A program made the position numbers and the translations under genes. A stretch of DNA of 59,996 nucleotides. Source: Candidatus Parcubacteria bacterium. GTDB taxonomy: Bacteria > Patescibacteriota > Minisyncoccia > Phycocordibacterales > UBA9973. Position 1 is the first letter of the stretch; every line of letters starts with the position of its first letter. This document shows, in pieces, positions 3,787 through 21,188 of this stretch. The notes below the pieces were generated by a model. That model was not told the origin of the DNA. It did no database searches and saw only the letters and a list, made by a program, of their open reading frames with translations. The DNA lies in the NCBI GenBank assembly GCA_039795715.1, contig JBDKLD010000008.1, positions 1-59,996 on the forward strand. The letters are read 5' to 3'.

Positions 3787-4542
3787 ATGAACTATCTAAT
3801 AAAAATTATCCCACACCCACTCAAGCTACTTATTGCCAACACACGAGCATACGTGCTTTTTCTGAAACAGTATCGTCATTTTATAAAACTATCAAAAAAG
3901 GGACACAGGTTTAGGGTTAGCTGGAGTGAACGAAATCCTCAGCTTCATGATAACTCCCGAGACACAGGTTTTGATCCCCATTACACATACCATCCAGCTT
4001 GGGCTGCTAGAATTCTCGCAAAAACAAAACCAGCACGACACGTAGATATTTCATCAATACTAAGTTTTTCAACAATAGTTTCAGCATTTGTGCCGACAGA
4101 TTTTTACGACTATCGACCTGCACACATTACACTGAGTGATCTTATCAGCAGAAAAGCCGATCTTACCGCACTCCAATTCTCAGATAATAGTATTGAATCA
4201 CTTTCCTGCATGCACACCATTGAACATATTGGGTTGGGCAGGTATGGTGACACAATCGATCCTGACGGCGACATAAAGGCTATGTCAGAACTTTCGCGAG
4301 TGATTGCGCGCGGCGGCAACTTGCTTTTTGTTACACCTATCGGGAAACCTAGAATTCAATTCAACGCTCACCGTATTTATTCATACAGGCAGATCATTGA
4401 TTATTTTCCAGATCTGAAATTAAAGGAATTTTCCCTTCTGGCGGACGACGGGGGTGGAGACGGCCTGATCATTAATGCATCCGAAACACAAGCAGACTCG
4501 CAAGAGTATGGCTGCGGATGTTTTTGGTTTACAAAAGTATAA
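3787..4542 (+). CDS. Methyltransferase-like protein (DUF268-type, GLGRYGD motif)
   Basis: SCMHTIEHIGLGRYGDTIDPDGD and RGGNLLFVTPIG resemble the DUF268/class I methyltransferase family as I recall it. ATG at 3787 follows the previous stop. Confidence 0.5.
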   Translation: MNYLIKIIPHPLKLLIANTRAYVLFLKQYRHFIKLSKKGHRFRVSWSERNPQLHDNSRDTGFDPHYTYHPAWAARILAKTKPARHVDISSILSFSTIVSAFVPTDFYDYRPAHITLSDLISRKADLTALQFSDNSIESLSCMHTIEHIGLGRYGDTIDPDGDIKAMSELSRVIARGGNLLFVTPIGKPRIQFNAHRIYSYRQIIDYFPDLKLKEFSLLADDGGGDGLIINASETQADSQEYGCGCFWFTKV

Positions 4543-5350: not shown

Positions 5351-6960
5351 AAATCGGCATCCTCTATATTTGCACCGGCAACTACACTGTTTTCTGGAAG
5401 GACTTTTATGAGAGCATGGAAAAGTATTTTGCGACTGACGCTGAAAAACATTACTTTGTCTTTACCGATGCCGATCACATAGAGCACGGGGTAGATGCGG
5501 CTGGAAACAAGAATCCGTATATTCATCGCATCTACCAGAAAAACCTTGGTTGGCCAGGCAATACGCTCAAGCGTTTTCACATGTTTCTTGGCATCGAAGA
5601 GGAGCTAGCAAAGCTCGATTACCTCTTTTTTTGCAATGCCAACTTACAAGTTCTTCAAACAATTTCTGCCTCCGATGTTTTACCAACTGGAGAAGAAAAG
5701 CTTGTTGCGACACTTCACCCAGGTTTTTATGCAAAACCACGTAGGAAATTTACTTACGAAAAAAATAGGAAGTCGATAGCATACATAAACAAAAGCGAAG
5801 GCGAACGCTACTTCGCTGGTGGTTTCAATGGCGGTACAAGTTCAGCTTTTATCTCTGCAACGAAAAAGATGCGAGAGCAAATTGATGCTGATGAGAAGAA
5901 TGGCGTAGTCGCTCGCTGGCATGATGAATCACATTGGAATAGATATTTGGTCAGTCGCACAGATGTAAAAGTCCTCTCTCCTGCTTTTCTCTATCCAGAA
6001 GGCTGGTCCCTACCTTTTACTCAAATTATTCTTGTACGAGACAAGAAAAAGCTTGGTGGCCACAATACAATGCGCAACAGCAAAAACTCGCTAAAGGATG
6101 TAGTAATAACATGGGCAAAAACGTTCATTAAAAACCTTATCTTGCTTGCGAAGCCGACCTCAAATACGACACATTTCATTCAGAAAAAATCACTTTTCTC
6201 GACACTTGACCAACACGAGCTAAACAGAAAAAACCTGATATGTATAACAATTGCTTTCAACAAAAGTACTGTAATTGAAGCGCAATGGAAGCAATTATCA
6301 GAGAACATTTCTGAGTCTTTCACCTACATAGTTGCTGACAATTCAAATGATGCAACTGTGAGTGCCGAGATACAGAATTACTGCGCTCAAAATTATATTT
6401 CATACGTTAAAATTCCAAATAATCCATTCGAGAAAAACCCAAGTCGCTCACATGGCATTGCGCTCAATTGGGCCTATGAACATATTGTAAAAAAGTACCG
6501 GCCAACGTATTTTGGTTTTATCGATCATGACATTTTGCCATTTAGGAAAACAGCAGTAACCGACAAAGTTCAAAATGGTATTTTTGGCCTCGCGCAGAAG
6601 CGTAACGAAAAATGGTACTTGTGGCCAGGATTTTCTTTTTTTAAGACATGTGAGGTAATAGAAAAACCACTAGATTTTTTACCATGCGACGGACTCGATA
6701 CTGGTGGCTCAAACTATGATGTGCTATACAAAAATATTGATCAGGCAACTCTTTCACAACTCCCACAGTACTATTTTGATATTGAAAAGAGAGTAAAGTT
6801 GCCAGCTTTTGATCACGCCAACCAAAACATAGTTGAAACTATTGGTGACTGGGTACACCTTATGAGAACTTCCAACTGGCATGGCTTGTCGCCAGAAAAA
6901 TCAAATAGTACTAAGAGTATCGAAGCTGCAGTAAAAACAATTCAAGAAATCGCATTATAG
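5329..6960 (+). CDS. Two-domain glycosyltransferase: N-terminal GT6 (ABO/alpha-1,3-Gal(NAc)-transferase-like, NXN type) fused to a C-terminal GT-A/GT2-like domain
   Basis: The N-terminal ~250 aa align by eye with human GTA/GTB blocks: HYFVFTD, LDYLFFCNANLQV (NAN in place of DVD), LVATLHPGFY, FTYEKNRKSIAYINKSEGERYFAGGFNGG, ARWHDESHWNRYL, KVLSPAFLYP. The C-terminal ~240 aa have ICITIAFNKS...YIVADNSND and FIDHDILPF (DXD-like). Confidence 0.85.
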   Translation: MARMEKVKIGILYICTGNYTVFWKDFYESMEKYFATDAEKHYFVFTDADHIEHGVDAAGNKNPYIHRIYQKNLGWPGNTLKRFHMFLGIEEELAKLDYLFFCNANLQVLQTISASDVLPTGEEKLVATLHPGFYAKPRRKFTYEKNRKSIAYINKSEGERYFAGGFNGGTSSAFISATKKMREQIDADEKNGVVARWHDESHWNRYLVSRTDVKVLSPAFLYPEGWSLPFTQIILVRDKKKLGGHNTMRNSKNSLKDVVITWAKTFIKNLILLAKPTSNTTHFIQKKSLFSTLDQHELNRKNLICITIAFNKSTVIEAQWKQLSENISESFTYIVADNSNDATVSAEIQNYCAQNYISYVKIPNNPFEKNPSRSHGIALNWAYEHIVKKYRPTYFGFIDHDILPFRKTAVTDKVQNGIFGLAQKRNEKWYLWPGFSFFKTCEVIEKPLDFLPCDGLDTGGSNYDVLYKNIDQATLSQLPQYYFDIEKRVKLPAFDHANQNIVETIGDWVHLMRTSNWHGLSPEKSNSTKSIEAAVKTIQEIAL

Positions 6961-15601: not shown

Positions 15602-16444
15602 CTACTTTATCTTATACATACTCCATCGTCGCTCCCCGACCCTTTCAATTTTTCCTTCATCTATTAGTGACTGTAGATCTCGTTGGATGGTCTTAAAGGA
15701 CACATCGGGGAACTCAGCTTTGACTTCGGCAATTGTGCTAGATTCTTTTCCGACAAGAGCCTTTATTATCTTGGTCTTTCTATCATCAAAAGTTGTGGAT
15801 TTGTCTTTTATAAAATTCTTGGTGCCGAATGTTGGAGCAATAGATTTATTAAGGACATTTATTACTAATTGTTCATGTCCTTTATCTTGAATGTCCTTTA
15901 TATGTCCTTTATCACTAGGAGCATCATTGTGCACTGTCCTCAAAGGCTTTTCTGTTTTTTCCACAGGCTCATTCCGCAAAATACTTTCAATATCTATAAG
16001 GCCACCGCGACGTGATTCGTAGCTACCGCCAAGTGCCATAAGTTCAAGCCTCAAAATTCTAAAGTTCATCTCAGAGACAAGAAAAAGTGTCACGCCGACT
16101 TCGAGGTAAGCAATAATTTTCTTGATGATATTATTTATTTCGTTTGAGCGACGATCATAGTTTTCTCCCCTAGTTCCAGCAATGTCATTGGCAACCGAGA
16201 GGAGAGCGAGGCCTGCCTTGCGAATCTCCTTCTGGAGCGGCTCATCTGATGGCAAAATATTGGAAACAAGATAGAGCGCAGTCGTGATATTGCCCGCACG
16301 CTTGGCAGACTGCGACAACGACTTATCCATGGTTTCCAATGCATCCTTTACATGTCCCTTAGAAAGTCCAGTGTCTTTTATGTGATTGTCCTTTTGATTT
16401 TCCATATTGATGAGTATGTCTCTTATGTCTTTTATTATAACCAT
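15602..16444 (-). CDS. Hypothetical DNA-binding protein with C-terminal winged-HTH (DeoR-like) domain
   Basis: C-terminus STIAEVKAEFPDVSFKTIQRDLQSLIDEGKIERVGERRWSMYKIK looks like a DeoR-type wHTH. The N-terminal and central parts carry repeated KGH[IV]KD motifs and a helical region. Confidence 0.5.
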   Translation of the reverse strand: MVIIKDIRDILINMENQKDNHIKDTGLSKGHVKDALETMDKSLSQSAKRAGNITTALYLVSNILPSDEPLQKEIRKAGLALLSVANDIAGTRGENYDRRSNEINNIIKKIIAYLEVGVTLFLVSEMNFRILRLELMALGGSYESRRGGLIDIESILRNEPVEKTEKPLRTVHNDAPSDKGHIKDIQDKGHEQLVINVLNKSIAPTFGTKNFIKDKSTTFDDRKTKIIKALVGKESSTIAEVKAEFPDVSFKTIQRDLQSLIDEGKIERVGERRWSMYKIK

Positions 16445-16469
16445 CAGACATTTGTAAGCAAGCTCGGAG

Positions 16470-16590
16470 CATTTTAAAAATAAATATTACCAATCGAGGC
16501 ATTTTCGGAGCGCGACGGCGCGAGAAGAAGGCGCTTTTTCAGCAGAAAAAGACGCCGGTGACGAGAGGGGTAATATTTCTTTTTAAAATG
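16470..16590. repeat. Copy 1 of a structured GC-rich repeat element (81-nt core 16490-16570 closed by a 22-bp AT-rich helix)
   Basis: The core is 80/81 identical to 20420-20500. The flank cattttaaaaataaatattacc (16470-16491) pairs with ggtaatatttctttttaaaatg (16569-16590) with one mismatch. Confidence 0.8.
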
Positions 16591-16659
16591 CCCGCGAGGG
16601 AACTGCTATTTATACTCCGAGCTTGTGTTACAATGTTTTCATCATCTTATATTTAAACA

Positions 16660-19294: not shown

Positions 19295-20389
19295 ATGGCA
19301 AAAAAAGCTACGAAAGCACCAAAAGAGCAGGGGGGAGCAGTTGATGACGCAATCAAGTCAATCCTGACAAAGTTCGGCGAAGGTTCGATCATGAAGCTTG
19401 GCGATGCGCCGAAAGTTAACGTCAGCGCCATACCAACAGGCTCTATTGGTCTCGACATTGCACTTGGCATCGGCGGTTTGCCACGCGGACGTATCATCGA
19501 AATTTTCGGTCCTGAGTCATCGGGCAAAACCACACTCGCGCTCCACGTCGTCGCCGAAGCCCAAAAGCTTGGCGGTATTTGCGCGTACATTGATGCTGAA
19601 CACGCAATGGATCCAGAATATGCACAAAACCTCGGTGTAAATATTGCCGAGCTACTTATTTCTCAACCAGACACAGGTGAGCAAGGTCTCGAAATTGTCG
19701 AGTCGCTTGTTCGCACCGGCAAGATTGACGTCATTGTCATTGATTCTGTCGCAGCACTCACTCCAAAAGATGAAATAGAAGGTGATATGGGTCAGCAACA
19801 CATGGGCAAGCAAGCACGTCTCATGTCGCAGGCACTTCGCAAGCTCACCGCGCTCGTCGCACGCTCAAACACAATAGTTATTTTCATCAACCAGATCCGC
19901 ATGCAGATCGGCGTCATGTTCGGCAATCCAGAAACAACTCCAGGTGGCAAGGCACTCAAGTTCTACACTTCTGTCCGTCTCGATATTCGTCGCATCGCGC
20001 AGATTAAAAAAGGTGAAGAAGTCGTCGGCTCGCGCACTCGCGTCAAAGTTGTCAAAAACAAAGTCGCTGCACCATTCAAGCAAACCGAATTCGATATTAT
20101 TTACGGCGAAGGTATTTCACTCGAAGGTGAAATCATGGCACTCGGTGAGAAGCTCGGCATTATCGAGAAAAGTGGGGCTTCATACACCTACGTTCCACCA
20201 GCCGGAGAAAAAAGTGAGAAAGGTGAAAAGGCCGACAAAGCCGAGAAACAGCCCGACAAGATTCCGCTCGCACGCGGATACGACGCCACTCGCCAAGCTC
20301 TCCGCGAAAACCCAAAACTCCGCGACCAAATTCTCAAGGTCATCCGCAAGCGAATGAAAGAAGTTGTTTCCGAATCAAGCGGCGAATAG
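19295..20389 (+). CDS. recA: Recombinase RecA
   Basis: [13 protein letters not shown] (Walker A), [38 protein letters not shown]. Full length, with a Lys/Glu-rich insert near the C-terminus. Confidence 0.97.
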
Positions 20390-20406
20390 CAGACTATTCG
20401 AGCGAA

Positions 20407-20513
20407 GGAATAAAAATAGCCAATCGAGTCATTTTCGGAGCGCGACGGCGCGAGAAGAAGGCGCTTTTTCAGCAGAAAAAGACGCCGGTGACGAGAGGGG
20501 CTATTTTTATTCC
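20407..20513. repeat. Copy 2 of the structured GC-rich repeat element (core 20420-20500 closed by a perfect 15-bp helix)
   Basis: ggaataaaaatagcc (20407-20421) pairs perfectly with ggctatttttattcc (20499-20513). Starts 18 nt after the recA stop. Confidence 0.8.
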
Positions 20514-20523
20514 TGCGCACAAT

Positions 20524-20551
20524 TTGACAGAGCTATTTTTTTGTGTATAAT
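20524..20551 (+). promoter_or_regulatory. Sigma70-type promoter for the 20580 gene
   Basis: TTGACA (20524-20529), 16-nt spacer, TATAAT (20546-20551); 28 nt upstream of ATG 20580. Confidence 0.5.
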
Positions 20552-20579
20552 AATAGTAAACGTACTAAAAAATACAATA

Positions 20580-21188
20580 ATGAAAATAGCAAAAAAAGAT
20601 TGGAATACGCTCACAACTTCCCTACCTGGTAAATTTCAAAGCTACAAAAATCCTTCTCGCTTGAGAATGATTCGTGTTAAAAAACTGGCTTTAAAACTTC
20701 GTGAAATAATCAATTTGTGTAATGACCCAGATCTCATCAAGAGACTGTTATCTGGCCCTTGTATATTCTTGGAAAGACCTGTTATTCGCCACCAAGACAG
20801 TGTCGAATTCAACTTTGCCGAAAAATGCACGATAGCTGAAGGGCTTCGGAAAAAATCACCTGATGTTCTATACAAAATGTATAGAAACAATAAGCTTAAG
20901 GTACAACATCTTGTTGAAGCAATAAATGCTGTAAACTGGTATATCAGAACTGGCCGACCAATTACCAAAGATGTCCTTGCGAGCAAGCTTGTACTTGAAA
21001 AAGTACTCAATATTTCTAATCTCGATCATCTTCGCATCTACGAAGCACTCAAGTATGAGGACAAGATGGCCATCGTTAAAAAAGCCGAGAAATACCTCAT
21101 TGCAGTACTTACTATGTGTATTGAGCATGAAACAAAACAAGTTGCGCTCAATAAAAAAATGATTGTCGAGGAAGAAGTTTTTGCTTAG
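20580..21188 (+). CDS. Hypothetical protein (202 aa)
   Basis: ATG 20580 follows a consensus promoter. The ORF-track N-terminal extension from 20364 reads through the repeat element and was discarded. No recognisable motif. Confidence 0.5.
   Translation: MKIAKKDWNTLTTSLPGKFQSYKNPSRLRMIRVKKLALKLREIINLCNDPDLIKRLLSGPCIFLERPVIRHQDSVEFNFAEKCTIAEGLRKKSPDVLYKMYRNNKLKVQHLVEAINAVNWYIRTGRPITKDVLASKLVLEKVLNISNLDHLRIYEALKYEDKMAIVKKAEKYLIAVLTMCIEHETKQVALNKKMIVEEEVFA

Follow-up and report, generated by a model that had tools for sequence, protein, structure and literature searches.

The window, by which we mean the whole stretch of 59,996 nucleotides analysed here, contains the genes ftsK and recA, and the relatives of its ftsK belong to Candidatus Paceibacterota within the candidate phyla radiation. 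An 81-nt block occurs twice on its plus strand, once at 16490-16570 (copy 1) between ftsK and a divergent gene with an HTH domain, and once at 20420-20500 (copy 2) behind recA. Copy 1 is bracketed by two blocks that are conserved in relatives, namely ATTATA at 16434-16439 (TATAAT if taken from the minus strand) and TGTGTTACAAT just upstream of ftsK, and it lies upstream of both flanking promoters. Because the conserved minus-strand TATAAT at 16434-16439 falls inside the longer frame of the open reading frame at 15602-16444 (minus strand), this frame probably starts later within 16401-16444, at the methionine of MENQK... near 16405; the mRNA would then be nearly leaderless.

The element of copy 2 starts 12-17 nt past the stop codon of recA (20387-20389) and is directly followed by a promoter for the next gene that agrees with the consensus at 12 of 12 positions (20524-20551). 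Its arm sequence is GGCUAUUUUUAUU, and the transcript would read UAGCC...GGCUA followed by UUUUUAUU, at the same place at which L003 and L006 carry terminators (loci of other genomes and metagenome contigs are given as L numbers). Of relevance for annotation, a public gene call of 274 aa (20364-21188 of the window, plus strand, corresponding to 6070-6894 of L201) runs through copy 2 and the promoter at 20524-20551. This call begins at a TTG within the 3' end of recA, and the gene after copy 2 most likely begins at ATG 20580 (202 aa, no Pfam hit). Strict scans detected no terminator at copy 1 or copy 2 and, spanning both cores, no promoter within either core.

Sequence and fold of the two copies

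A pattern search of the window returned the 81-nt block exactly twice, with none expected by chance, and the two cores are identical at 80 of 81 positions, G16499 versus T20429 being the sole difference. A repeat finder extended the similarity to 103 nt at 92% identity (16479-16581 versus 20409-20511). The covariance model, run on the window with filters off, scored copy 1 at 72.2 bits (E ~1e-20) and copy 2 at 70.6 bits and found these two copies only; the next-best matches reached at most 15 bits, lay inside coding sequence and did not contain the motif. The G+C content of the cores is 57-58% versus about 42% for the window, and the core contains no ATG; a GC-rich core without ATG had already been described in the first-pass annotation.

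Each core sits within its own long inverted repeat, which had likewise been recognised at first reading. In copy 1, 16470-16491 pairs with 16569-16590 over 22 bp with one mismatch and one further G-C pair is possible, which places the arms of this long, AT-rich and locus-specific stem, termed P1, at 16469-16491 and 16569-16591 (22-23 bp, from the inverted repeat and folding). In copy 2, 20407-20421 pairs perfectly with 20499-20513 over 15 bp, and the helix can be extended to 20 bp with one A/G mismatch (arms 20402-20421 and 20499-20518, the latter reading GGCTATTTTTATTCC...). As read from the sequence, an outer helix of copy 1 is formed by AAGCTCGGAG (16460-16469) and CTCCGAGCTT (16615-16624) with 10 bp across a 24-nt bulge on the 3' side, and its 3' strand adjoins the TGTGTTACAAT box in the alignment. 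Many homologs possess an outer helix similar to that of copy 1, plus an asymmetric internal loop.

It had been proposed that five compensatory differences between the flanks of the two copies reflect selection on pairing. These differences do exist, but homology between the flanks is not detectable: beyond the common CC/GG, 8 of 13 positions agree in the 5' arms against 6.2 predicted by composition alone (p = 0.15-0.23), and AT-rich arms of unrelated members in other genomes agree with copy 1 at 8-10 of 13. Since the flank identity is at chance level, the two copies carry two different palindromes and not one drifted helix.

Identity, covariance model and covariation support a conserved three-way-junction core of 81 nt, at 16490-16570 of the plus strand in copy 1. 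It comprises the short helix P1b (16498-16502 with 16558-16562) and two hairpins. P2 consists of a lower stem (16503-16506 with 16524-16527), a bulged G (16507), tandem G·A pairs (16508-16509 with 16522-16523) and an upper stem (16510-16513 with 16518-16521) that carries a GACG loop (16514-16517); P3 (16530-16540 with 16545-16556, bulged A16552) ends in an AGCA loop (16541-16544). In copy 2 the same parts are found at an offset of +3930, and the only difference between the cores falls into the inner helix, where U20429 pairs with A20491 so that P1b is fully paired, versus a G16499·A16561 mismatch in copy 1. The earlier three-helix picture was essentially right: besides P1 there is one hairpin with tandem G·A pairs and a second one of 10-11 bp that is tipped by C-AGCA-G, and more than 100 homologs covary accordingly. 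Its CGCG-ACGG-CGCG tetraloop, however, was off by one in register; GCGC-GACG-GCGC is correct because homologs such as AGCC-GACG-GGCU pair only in this way.

Folding of the sense strand, a check that had been suggested for this model, gave -46.3 kcal/mol for copy 1 (z = -7.1) and -52.9 kcal/mol for copy 2 (z = -8.6), and none of 200 shuffles folded as well. The antisense strands of copies 1 and 2 also fold well (z = -7.0 and -8.3, respectively).

A family with a conserved tip and locus-specific stems

Diverged relatives of the element were found in loci of related species by blastn and a simple descriptor search, and a metagenome scan with CGGAGSSCGACGGSSCGAGA returned at least 120 loci, about two thirds of the matches listed being true members by eye. 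With a covariance model built from 30 members, at least 14 members were identified in the 934 kb that surround ftsK in 80 related species. In the metagenome loci the model recovered more than 100, which lie in both orientations and reach a density of four copies per 10 kb. The search for further homologs that the first reading had called for uncovered more than 100 of them in Candidatus Paceibacterota. An exact 28-mer of the core had no match in GTDB genomes or viral contigs, and the one degenerate-pattern match in viral contigs lies in G+C-rich coding sequence and is not a member.

The members share a conserved junction of about 55-80 nt, composed of P1b, P2 and P3, at the tip of the long stem P1, which often has an inner GA/GA pair and a short P1b. 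In P2, a lower stem of 3-6 bp is followed by a bulged G, tandem G·A pairs and a stem of 4 bp that carries the GACG loop; P3 is a stem of 7-11 bp that has a bulged A close to its base and ends in the AGCA loop. Double-sided changes occur in 13 of the 14 pairs. Among 104 distinct sequences, 96.5% of the cells are paired versus 67.5% in shuffles and 38-62% in slid controls, and 369 cells are double-sided versus 94 in shuffles, in an alignment that was fitted to the model and in which part of P2, although not its pairing, was fixed by the search pattern.

That no known Rfam family is involved, as had been supposed, is borne out by Rfam 15, which gave no family match at gathering score over the whole window and nothing relevant at E<=10 around copy 1; in 36 homolog-bearing loci no family overlapped the element at gathering score or at E<=1. 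A snoRNA-like match (E = 0.008) at 16582-16657 of the minus strand lies outside the core and is attributed to chance. Literature keyword searches, which are weak evidence of novelty given their incomplete coverage, returned no account of such an element. With more than 100 instances, strong covariation and absence from Rfam, the element is a ready candidate for a new family.

The idea that cores within one genome are always near-identical proved wrong, as core identity within other multi-copy contigs is 50-76% and several subfamilies coexist in one genome. One subfamily (L116 4280-4406, L151, L176, L155, L105, L111 and L153) has an element of about 150 nt, in which a short outer helix and an asymmetric internal loop with a GAGAAAGAG-like 3' side are semi-conserved, the inner UUUUUGGAG/CUCCAAAAA helix and the core are conserved and the intervening 7-9-bp duplex alone is hypervariable. 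Pairs of elements from different subfamilies are further found back to back (L179 869-1122, L125 1695-1925, L153 10182-10389, L116 4296-4531), in opposite orientation, about 120-150 nt apart and with partly overlapping outer helices.

The median length of the stem P1 is 22 bp (range 12-37 bp; the longest scored is 32 bp, and 37 bp are reached in L193), about 96% of its pairs are Watson-Crick, and its sequence is different at every locus. If both transition mismatches are scored neutrally, G:T outnumbers A:C by 94:28 in the stems when read on the sense strand of the core, and by 48:19 in the outer, locus-specific stem (p = 5e-4). The bias is alike in co-oriented (23:5) and anti-oriented (37:9) elements. 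The hairpin therefore matters, or arises, on the sense strand of the core, and an excess that tracks the core points to either sense transcription or a putative single-strand DNA step. As guides to sequence at the same locus, the stem arms showed no excess over shuffled arms (9.6 nt versus 9.0 nt).

The genomes of this group also contain many long perfect palindromes with short loops; in 1.4 Mb, 130 of them have a stem of 14 bp or more. Examples are L015 13406-13466, L013 11214-11273, L041 10319-10374 and L067 6378-6417, besides about 125 others; their loops measure 0-6 nt and their stems 14-30 bp, and most resemble bidirectional terminators with pairing A- and T-tracts. A 138-nt perfect palindrome at the very end of a contig (L072 5819-5956; stem 69 bp, loop 0), which includes coding-like sequence, is probably an assembly fold-back artefact.

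Overall, the two copies belong to a widespread structured family with a conserved three-way-junction tip, locus-specific stems and strand-specific pairing.

Genomic position and turnover

With respect to their neighbouring genes, the elements are oriented at random (17 co-oriented, 21 anti-oriented, 11 convergent, 9 divergent), and about 36% of the long-stem copies are antisense to both neighbours. In tandem contexts the element seems to lie nearer the 3' end of the facing gene than the start of the other gene. Many copies are close to a stop codon, where relatives have terminators of the A-tract/stem/T-tract type, and several, copy 1 included, lie between divergent genes. In the family as a whole, U-tracts show no bias towards the direction in which the neighbouring gene runs, and sense-side sigma-70 promoters are not significantly enriched (36/60, p = 0.19). 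GC skew of the sense strand is positive for 33 elements and negative for 35, which rules out an orientation tied to replication. The neighbours are unrelated housekeeping genes with none recurring; among them no recombinase adjoins a copy, and no direct repeats or target-site duplications flank the long-stem copies. One long-stem member (L163 807-871) is located 66 nt upstream of a tmRNA gene (937-1341) on the same strand.

Comparison of orthologous sites revealed a considerable turnover. The site upstream of ftsK contains an element in the window (+), L203 (+), L003 (+) and L004 (-), and is empty in L001, L002, L005, L006, L011 and L206. The site downstream of recA carries elements with a different stem in each case in the window (+), L204/L208 (+), L007 (-) and L205-207 (-), none in L203 and ordinary terminators directly before the orthologous -35 box in L003 and L006. 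Together with the vacant site of L203, these four kinds of element make five states among genomes with 84-93% identical recA. Divergence of recA among L007, L204 and L208 is only about 8%, and the genomes closest to the window have recA about 84% identical; a look-up of the exact RecA protein for a strain-level empty site recovered the same sequence alone. In L034 an element occupies the position of ordinary bidirectional terminators in L016, L032 and L067, and shares an outer A/T-tract stem with the terminator of L016. Elsewhere, 97%-identical cores (72 nt) are present at non-syntenic loci with unrelated stems. Gain, loss, replacement and inversion hence occur at orthologous intergenic sites, with the fold kept on one strand.

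Where descent is clear, the element appears to evolve like a constrained structure: between L204 and L208 it is intact and its sole three changes are transitions that yield G·U pairs, and between L015 and L020 compensatory changes are found throughout. The first-pass annotation had named, as evidence against its own proposal, a lack of further homologs and of transcription together with flanks that are older terminator hairpins entered by a mobile core. This applies in part, since plain terminators do occur in relatives at some of the orthologous sites and the element is gained, lost and flipped in the manner of an insertion.

An element adjacent to recA is found in the window (16469-16591 and 20402-20518), L007, L204/L208, L205-207 and L111; in the latter, an unrelated metagenome contig, recA again lies between two elements (4356-4445 and 5567-5668). 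This adjacency could be due to chance or could mark a favoured site.

A class of its own is formed by members with a short P1, which are found strictly behind tRNA genes: 12 of them have a tRNA gene within 300 nt, and all 12 share its strand and follow it downstream. In several cases a direct copy of the tRNA end flanks the element, with 19/19 nt in L135 (2376-2394 and 2525-2543) and its ortholog L091, 16 nt in L122 (402-420 and 677-695) and L095, and 41 nt in L189. In the orthologs L135 and L091 the tRNA-Ser 3' ends differ at 6-7 of 19 positions, and the downstream copy exactly matches the tRNA of its own locus, with the 5' arm of the element shifting to stay complementary. This three-way covariation suggests an alternative pairing in the RNA. 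From our point of view, the repeats of the tRNA-linked class are as compatible with an integrated element that bears att-like repeats as with an RNA device based on alternative pairing. In L189 (2809-3136 and 3287-3327), the tRNA gene just downstream of the element appears to contain a group I intron (Rfam Intron_gpI, 74.5 bits), and the 41-nt direct repeat that flanks the element corresponds to the 5' part of this tRNA.

Interpretation and comparison with known systems

Different explanations can be imagined for these observations. The one that we favour, with a probability of about 0.5, is that the element represents a mobile, structure-selected, non-coding repeat of Candidatus Paceibacterota that resides at hairpin tips, the cores of the window being one subfamily. 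A non-autonomous mobile or recombining module would settle at the tips of intergenic hairpins, often at sites that are occupied by bidirectional terminators in relatives, or immediately after a tRNA gene. It may be tolerated, or even useful, because its compact folding would leave the host hairpin intact, and the long perfect palindromes of these genomes could serve as hosts. Near-identical cores with unrelated stems at unrelated loci look like spread and not like descent. Copy 2, which lies in sense orientation between recA and the next promoter, would, once transcribed, form the terminal hairpin of the recA mRNA and could act as a terminator substitute or as a block to 3' exonucleases; copy 1 is probably a passenger between divergent promoters.

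Several points sit less easily with a mobile repeat at hairpin tips. For the long-stem class, neither a mobilising enzyme nor a target-site duplication nor a genuinely empty site at strain level was found, and some of the stems are not terminator-like, in line with the lack of a U-tract bias and the location of several copies between divergent genes. A G:T excess that tracks the core and not the flanking transcription would not be predicted for a pure passenger in host terminators. As the near-identity seen in the window is not the rule, it could equally stem from a recent local duplication or gene conversion. Lastly, some members of the family possess conserved motifs beyond the variable stem, and the simple notion of a core inserted into a pre-existing hairpin therefore falls short.

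It is also possible, if on the doubtful side, that the element is a functional RNA module, either cis-acting or a protein-bound small RNA, that is selected in many copies. The stem would then require pairing only, hence its differences between loci, and gains and losses would represent ordinary duplication and decay. Strong covariation, the conserved GACG and AGCA loops, tandem G·A pairs and bulged A, and the sense-strand G:T excess are all what such a module would leave behind, and so are the three changes to G·U pairs in the intact L204/L208 elements. The tRNA-linked class adds to this, with 12 of 12 members co-stranded and downstream and the covariation of L135/L091 with the tRNA 3' end. 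A functional RNA is, however, difficult to reconcile with the roughly 36% of long-stem copies that are antisense to both neighbours, the lack of a detectable promoter signal or a linked gene, and the position of copy 1 upstream of both flanking promoters. The flips of orientation at the same site between close relatives, and near-identical cores with unrelated stems at unrelated loci, argue in the same direction. Of the two options raised in the first-pass annotation, a structured RNA or a palindromic element, the structure itself has been substantiated, a palindromic or mobile nature fits at least as well as an RNA gene, and the data point to both.

One could further speculate, although we consider it unlikely, that the element is of a kind so far unrecognised, in which an RNA-like tip propagates among locus-specific hairpins by a process that depends on its single-strand fold, and whose tRNA-linked form acts as an alternative-pairing switch in the maturation of the tRNA. 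Spread as a single strand might involve templated copying, fold-back synthesis or a structure-specific recombinase, and local sequence would either supply the stem or serve as what the stem is matched to. The tRNA-linked form would contain the tRNA 3' end as an exact copy, together with its complement.

A more improbable alternative is a folded single-stranded DNA substrate of recombination, comparable to attC or the CTX attP. Its three-way-junction tip would be the target of a tyrosine recombinase or HUH enzyme, with a gene located elsewhere, that moves or inverts it. The short-stem class is flanked by tRNA-end repeats in the manner of integrated elements, but no recombinase is found next to any copy and the long-stem copies have no flanking direct repeats. 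The conservation of structure over sequence, the strand-specific G:T excess, the conserved extrahelical bases and the presence of both orientations at one site would be in keeping with such a substrate, but transposition that depends on the lagging strand would predict a bias in GC skew (33 versus 35), and the conserved part is the tip and not the base as in attC. A mere local duplication, or an ordinary intrinsic terminator with a large loop and no family meaning, might come to mind for two directly oriented copies in 60 kb, 3.9 kb apart, of which copy 2 lies where relatives have terminators, but it is already refuted by more than 100 covarying homologs in other genomes, besides the unrelated flanks of the two copies and the lack of a family U-tract bias, and hardly merits further consideration.

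The tiny genomes of the candidate phyla radiation have little non-coding DNA, and few non-coding elements have been described from them. The family bears on termination and on the organisation of mRNA and tRNA 3' ends in these organisms. Like integron attC sites and the attP(+) hairpins of CTX phage, the element retains structure over sequence, folds strand-specifically and has conserved extrahelical bases. In attC, however, the conserved boxes lie at the base and the centre is variable, and the element shows the reverse, a conserved tip on a variable base; its copies are furthermore dispersed, form no array and have no integrase nearby, for which reason an attC site was rejected. The T-shaped terminal hairpins of adeno-associated virus are similar by analogy only, with a long stem, two small hairpins at a three-way junction and a tip that can lie either way ('flip/flop'). 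Those hairpins form the ends of a linear viral genome and have a conserved stem with Rep sites, whereas the elements described here are chromosomal and internal and have variable stems.

On the RNA side, P2 resembles kink-turns and related tandem-G·A motifs, since 5'-GA/5'-GA is conserved next to a bulge and a second GA/GA often flanks P1b. The tandem GA/GA hardly varies, but in place of the three bulged nucleotides of a kink-turn there is one G, or none as in L034. With intrinsic bidirectional terminators the element has in common that many copies lie near stop codons at the terminator sites of relatives; unlike in these, the loop is a folded module of 55-80 nt, a family U-tract bias is lacking and some copies lie between divergent genes. 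An invertible promoter (inverton) was dismissed, the inverted repeats being locus-unique and the strict scans showing no promoter within either core.

Among small mobile repeats, an assignment to MITEs is at odds with the stems, which differ between 97-99% identical cores instead of forming conserved terminal inverted repeats, and with the flanking repeats, which are confined to the tRNA-linked class and measure 16-41 nt instead of having the fixed length of a target-site duplication. Palindromes derived from IS200/IS605 would display a strand bias tied to replication; the elements are distributed 33 versus 35 and occur in both orientations within single contigs. REP and REPIN sequences conserve the sequence of the stem among copies, and here only the tip is conserved.

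REP/BIME, REPIN, ERIC, Correia/NEMIS and RUP/BOX are small intergenic palindromic repeats of bacteria. Like these, the element is short, non-coding, multi-copy and intergenic near gene ends, would form stable hairpins if transcribed, occurs in both orientations and varies in presence between relatives. It differs from them in that neither a RAYT-type nor any other transposase was found among the neighbouring genes and in that the long-stem copies have no target-site duplications. Above all, those repeats conserve the stem or terminal inverted repeats, whereas here the tip is conserved and the stem is unique to the locus. This reversal of the arrangement in known bacterial repeats raises the question how a folded module spreads between hairpins.
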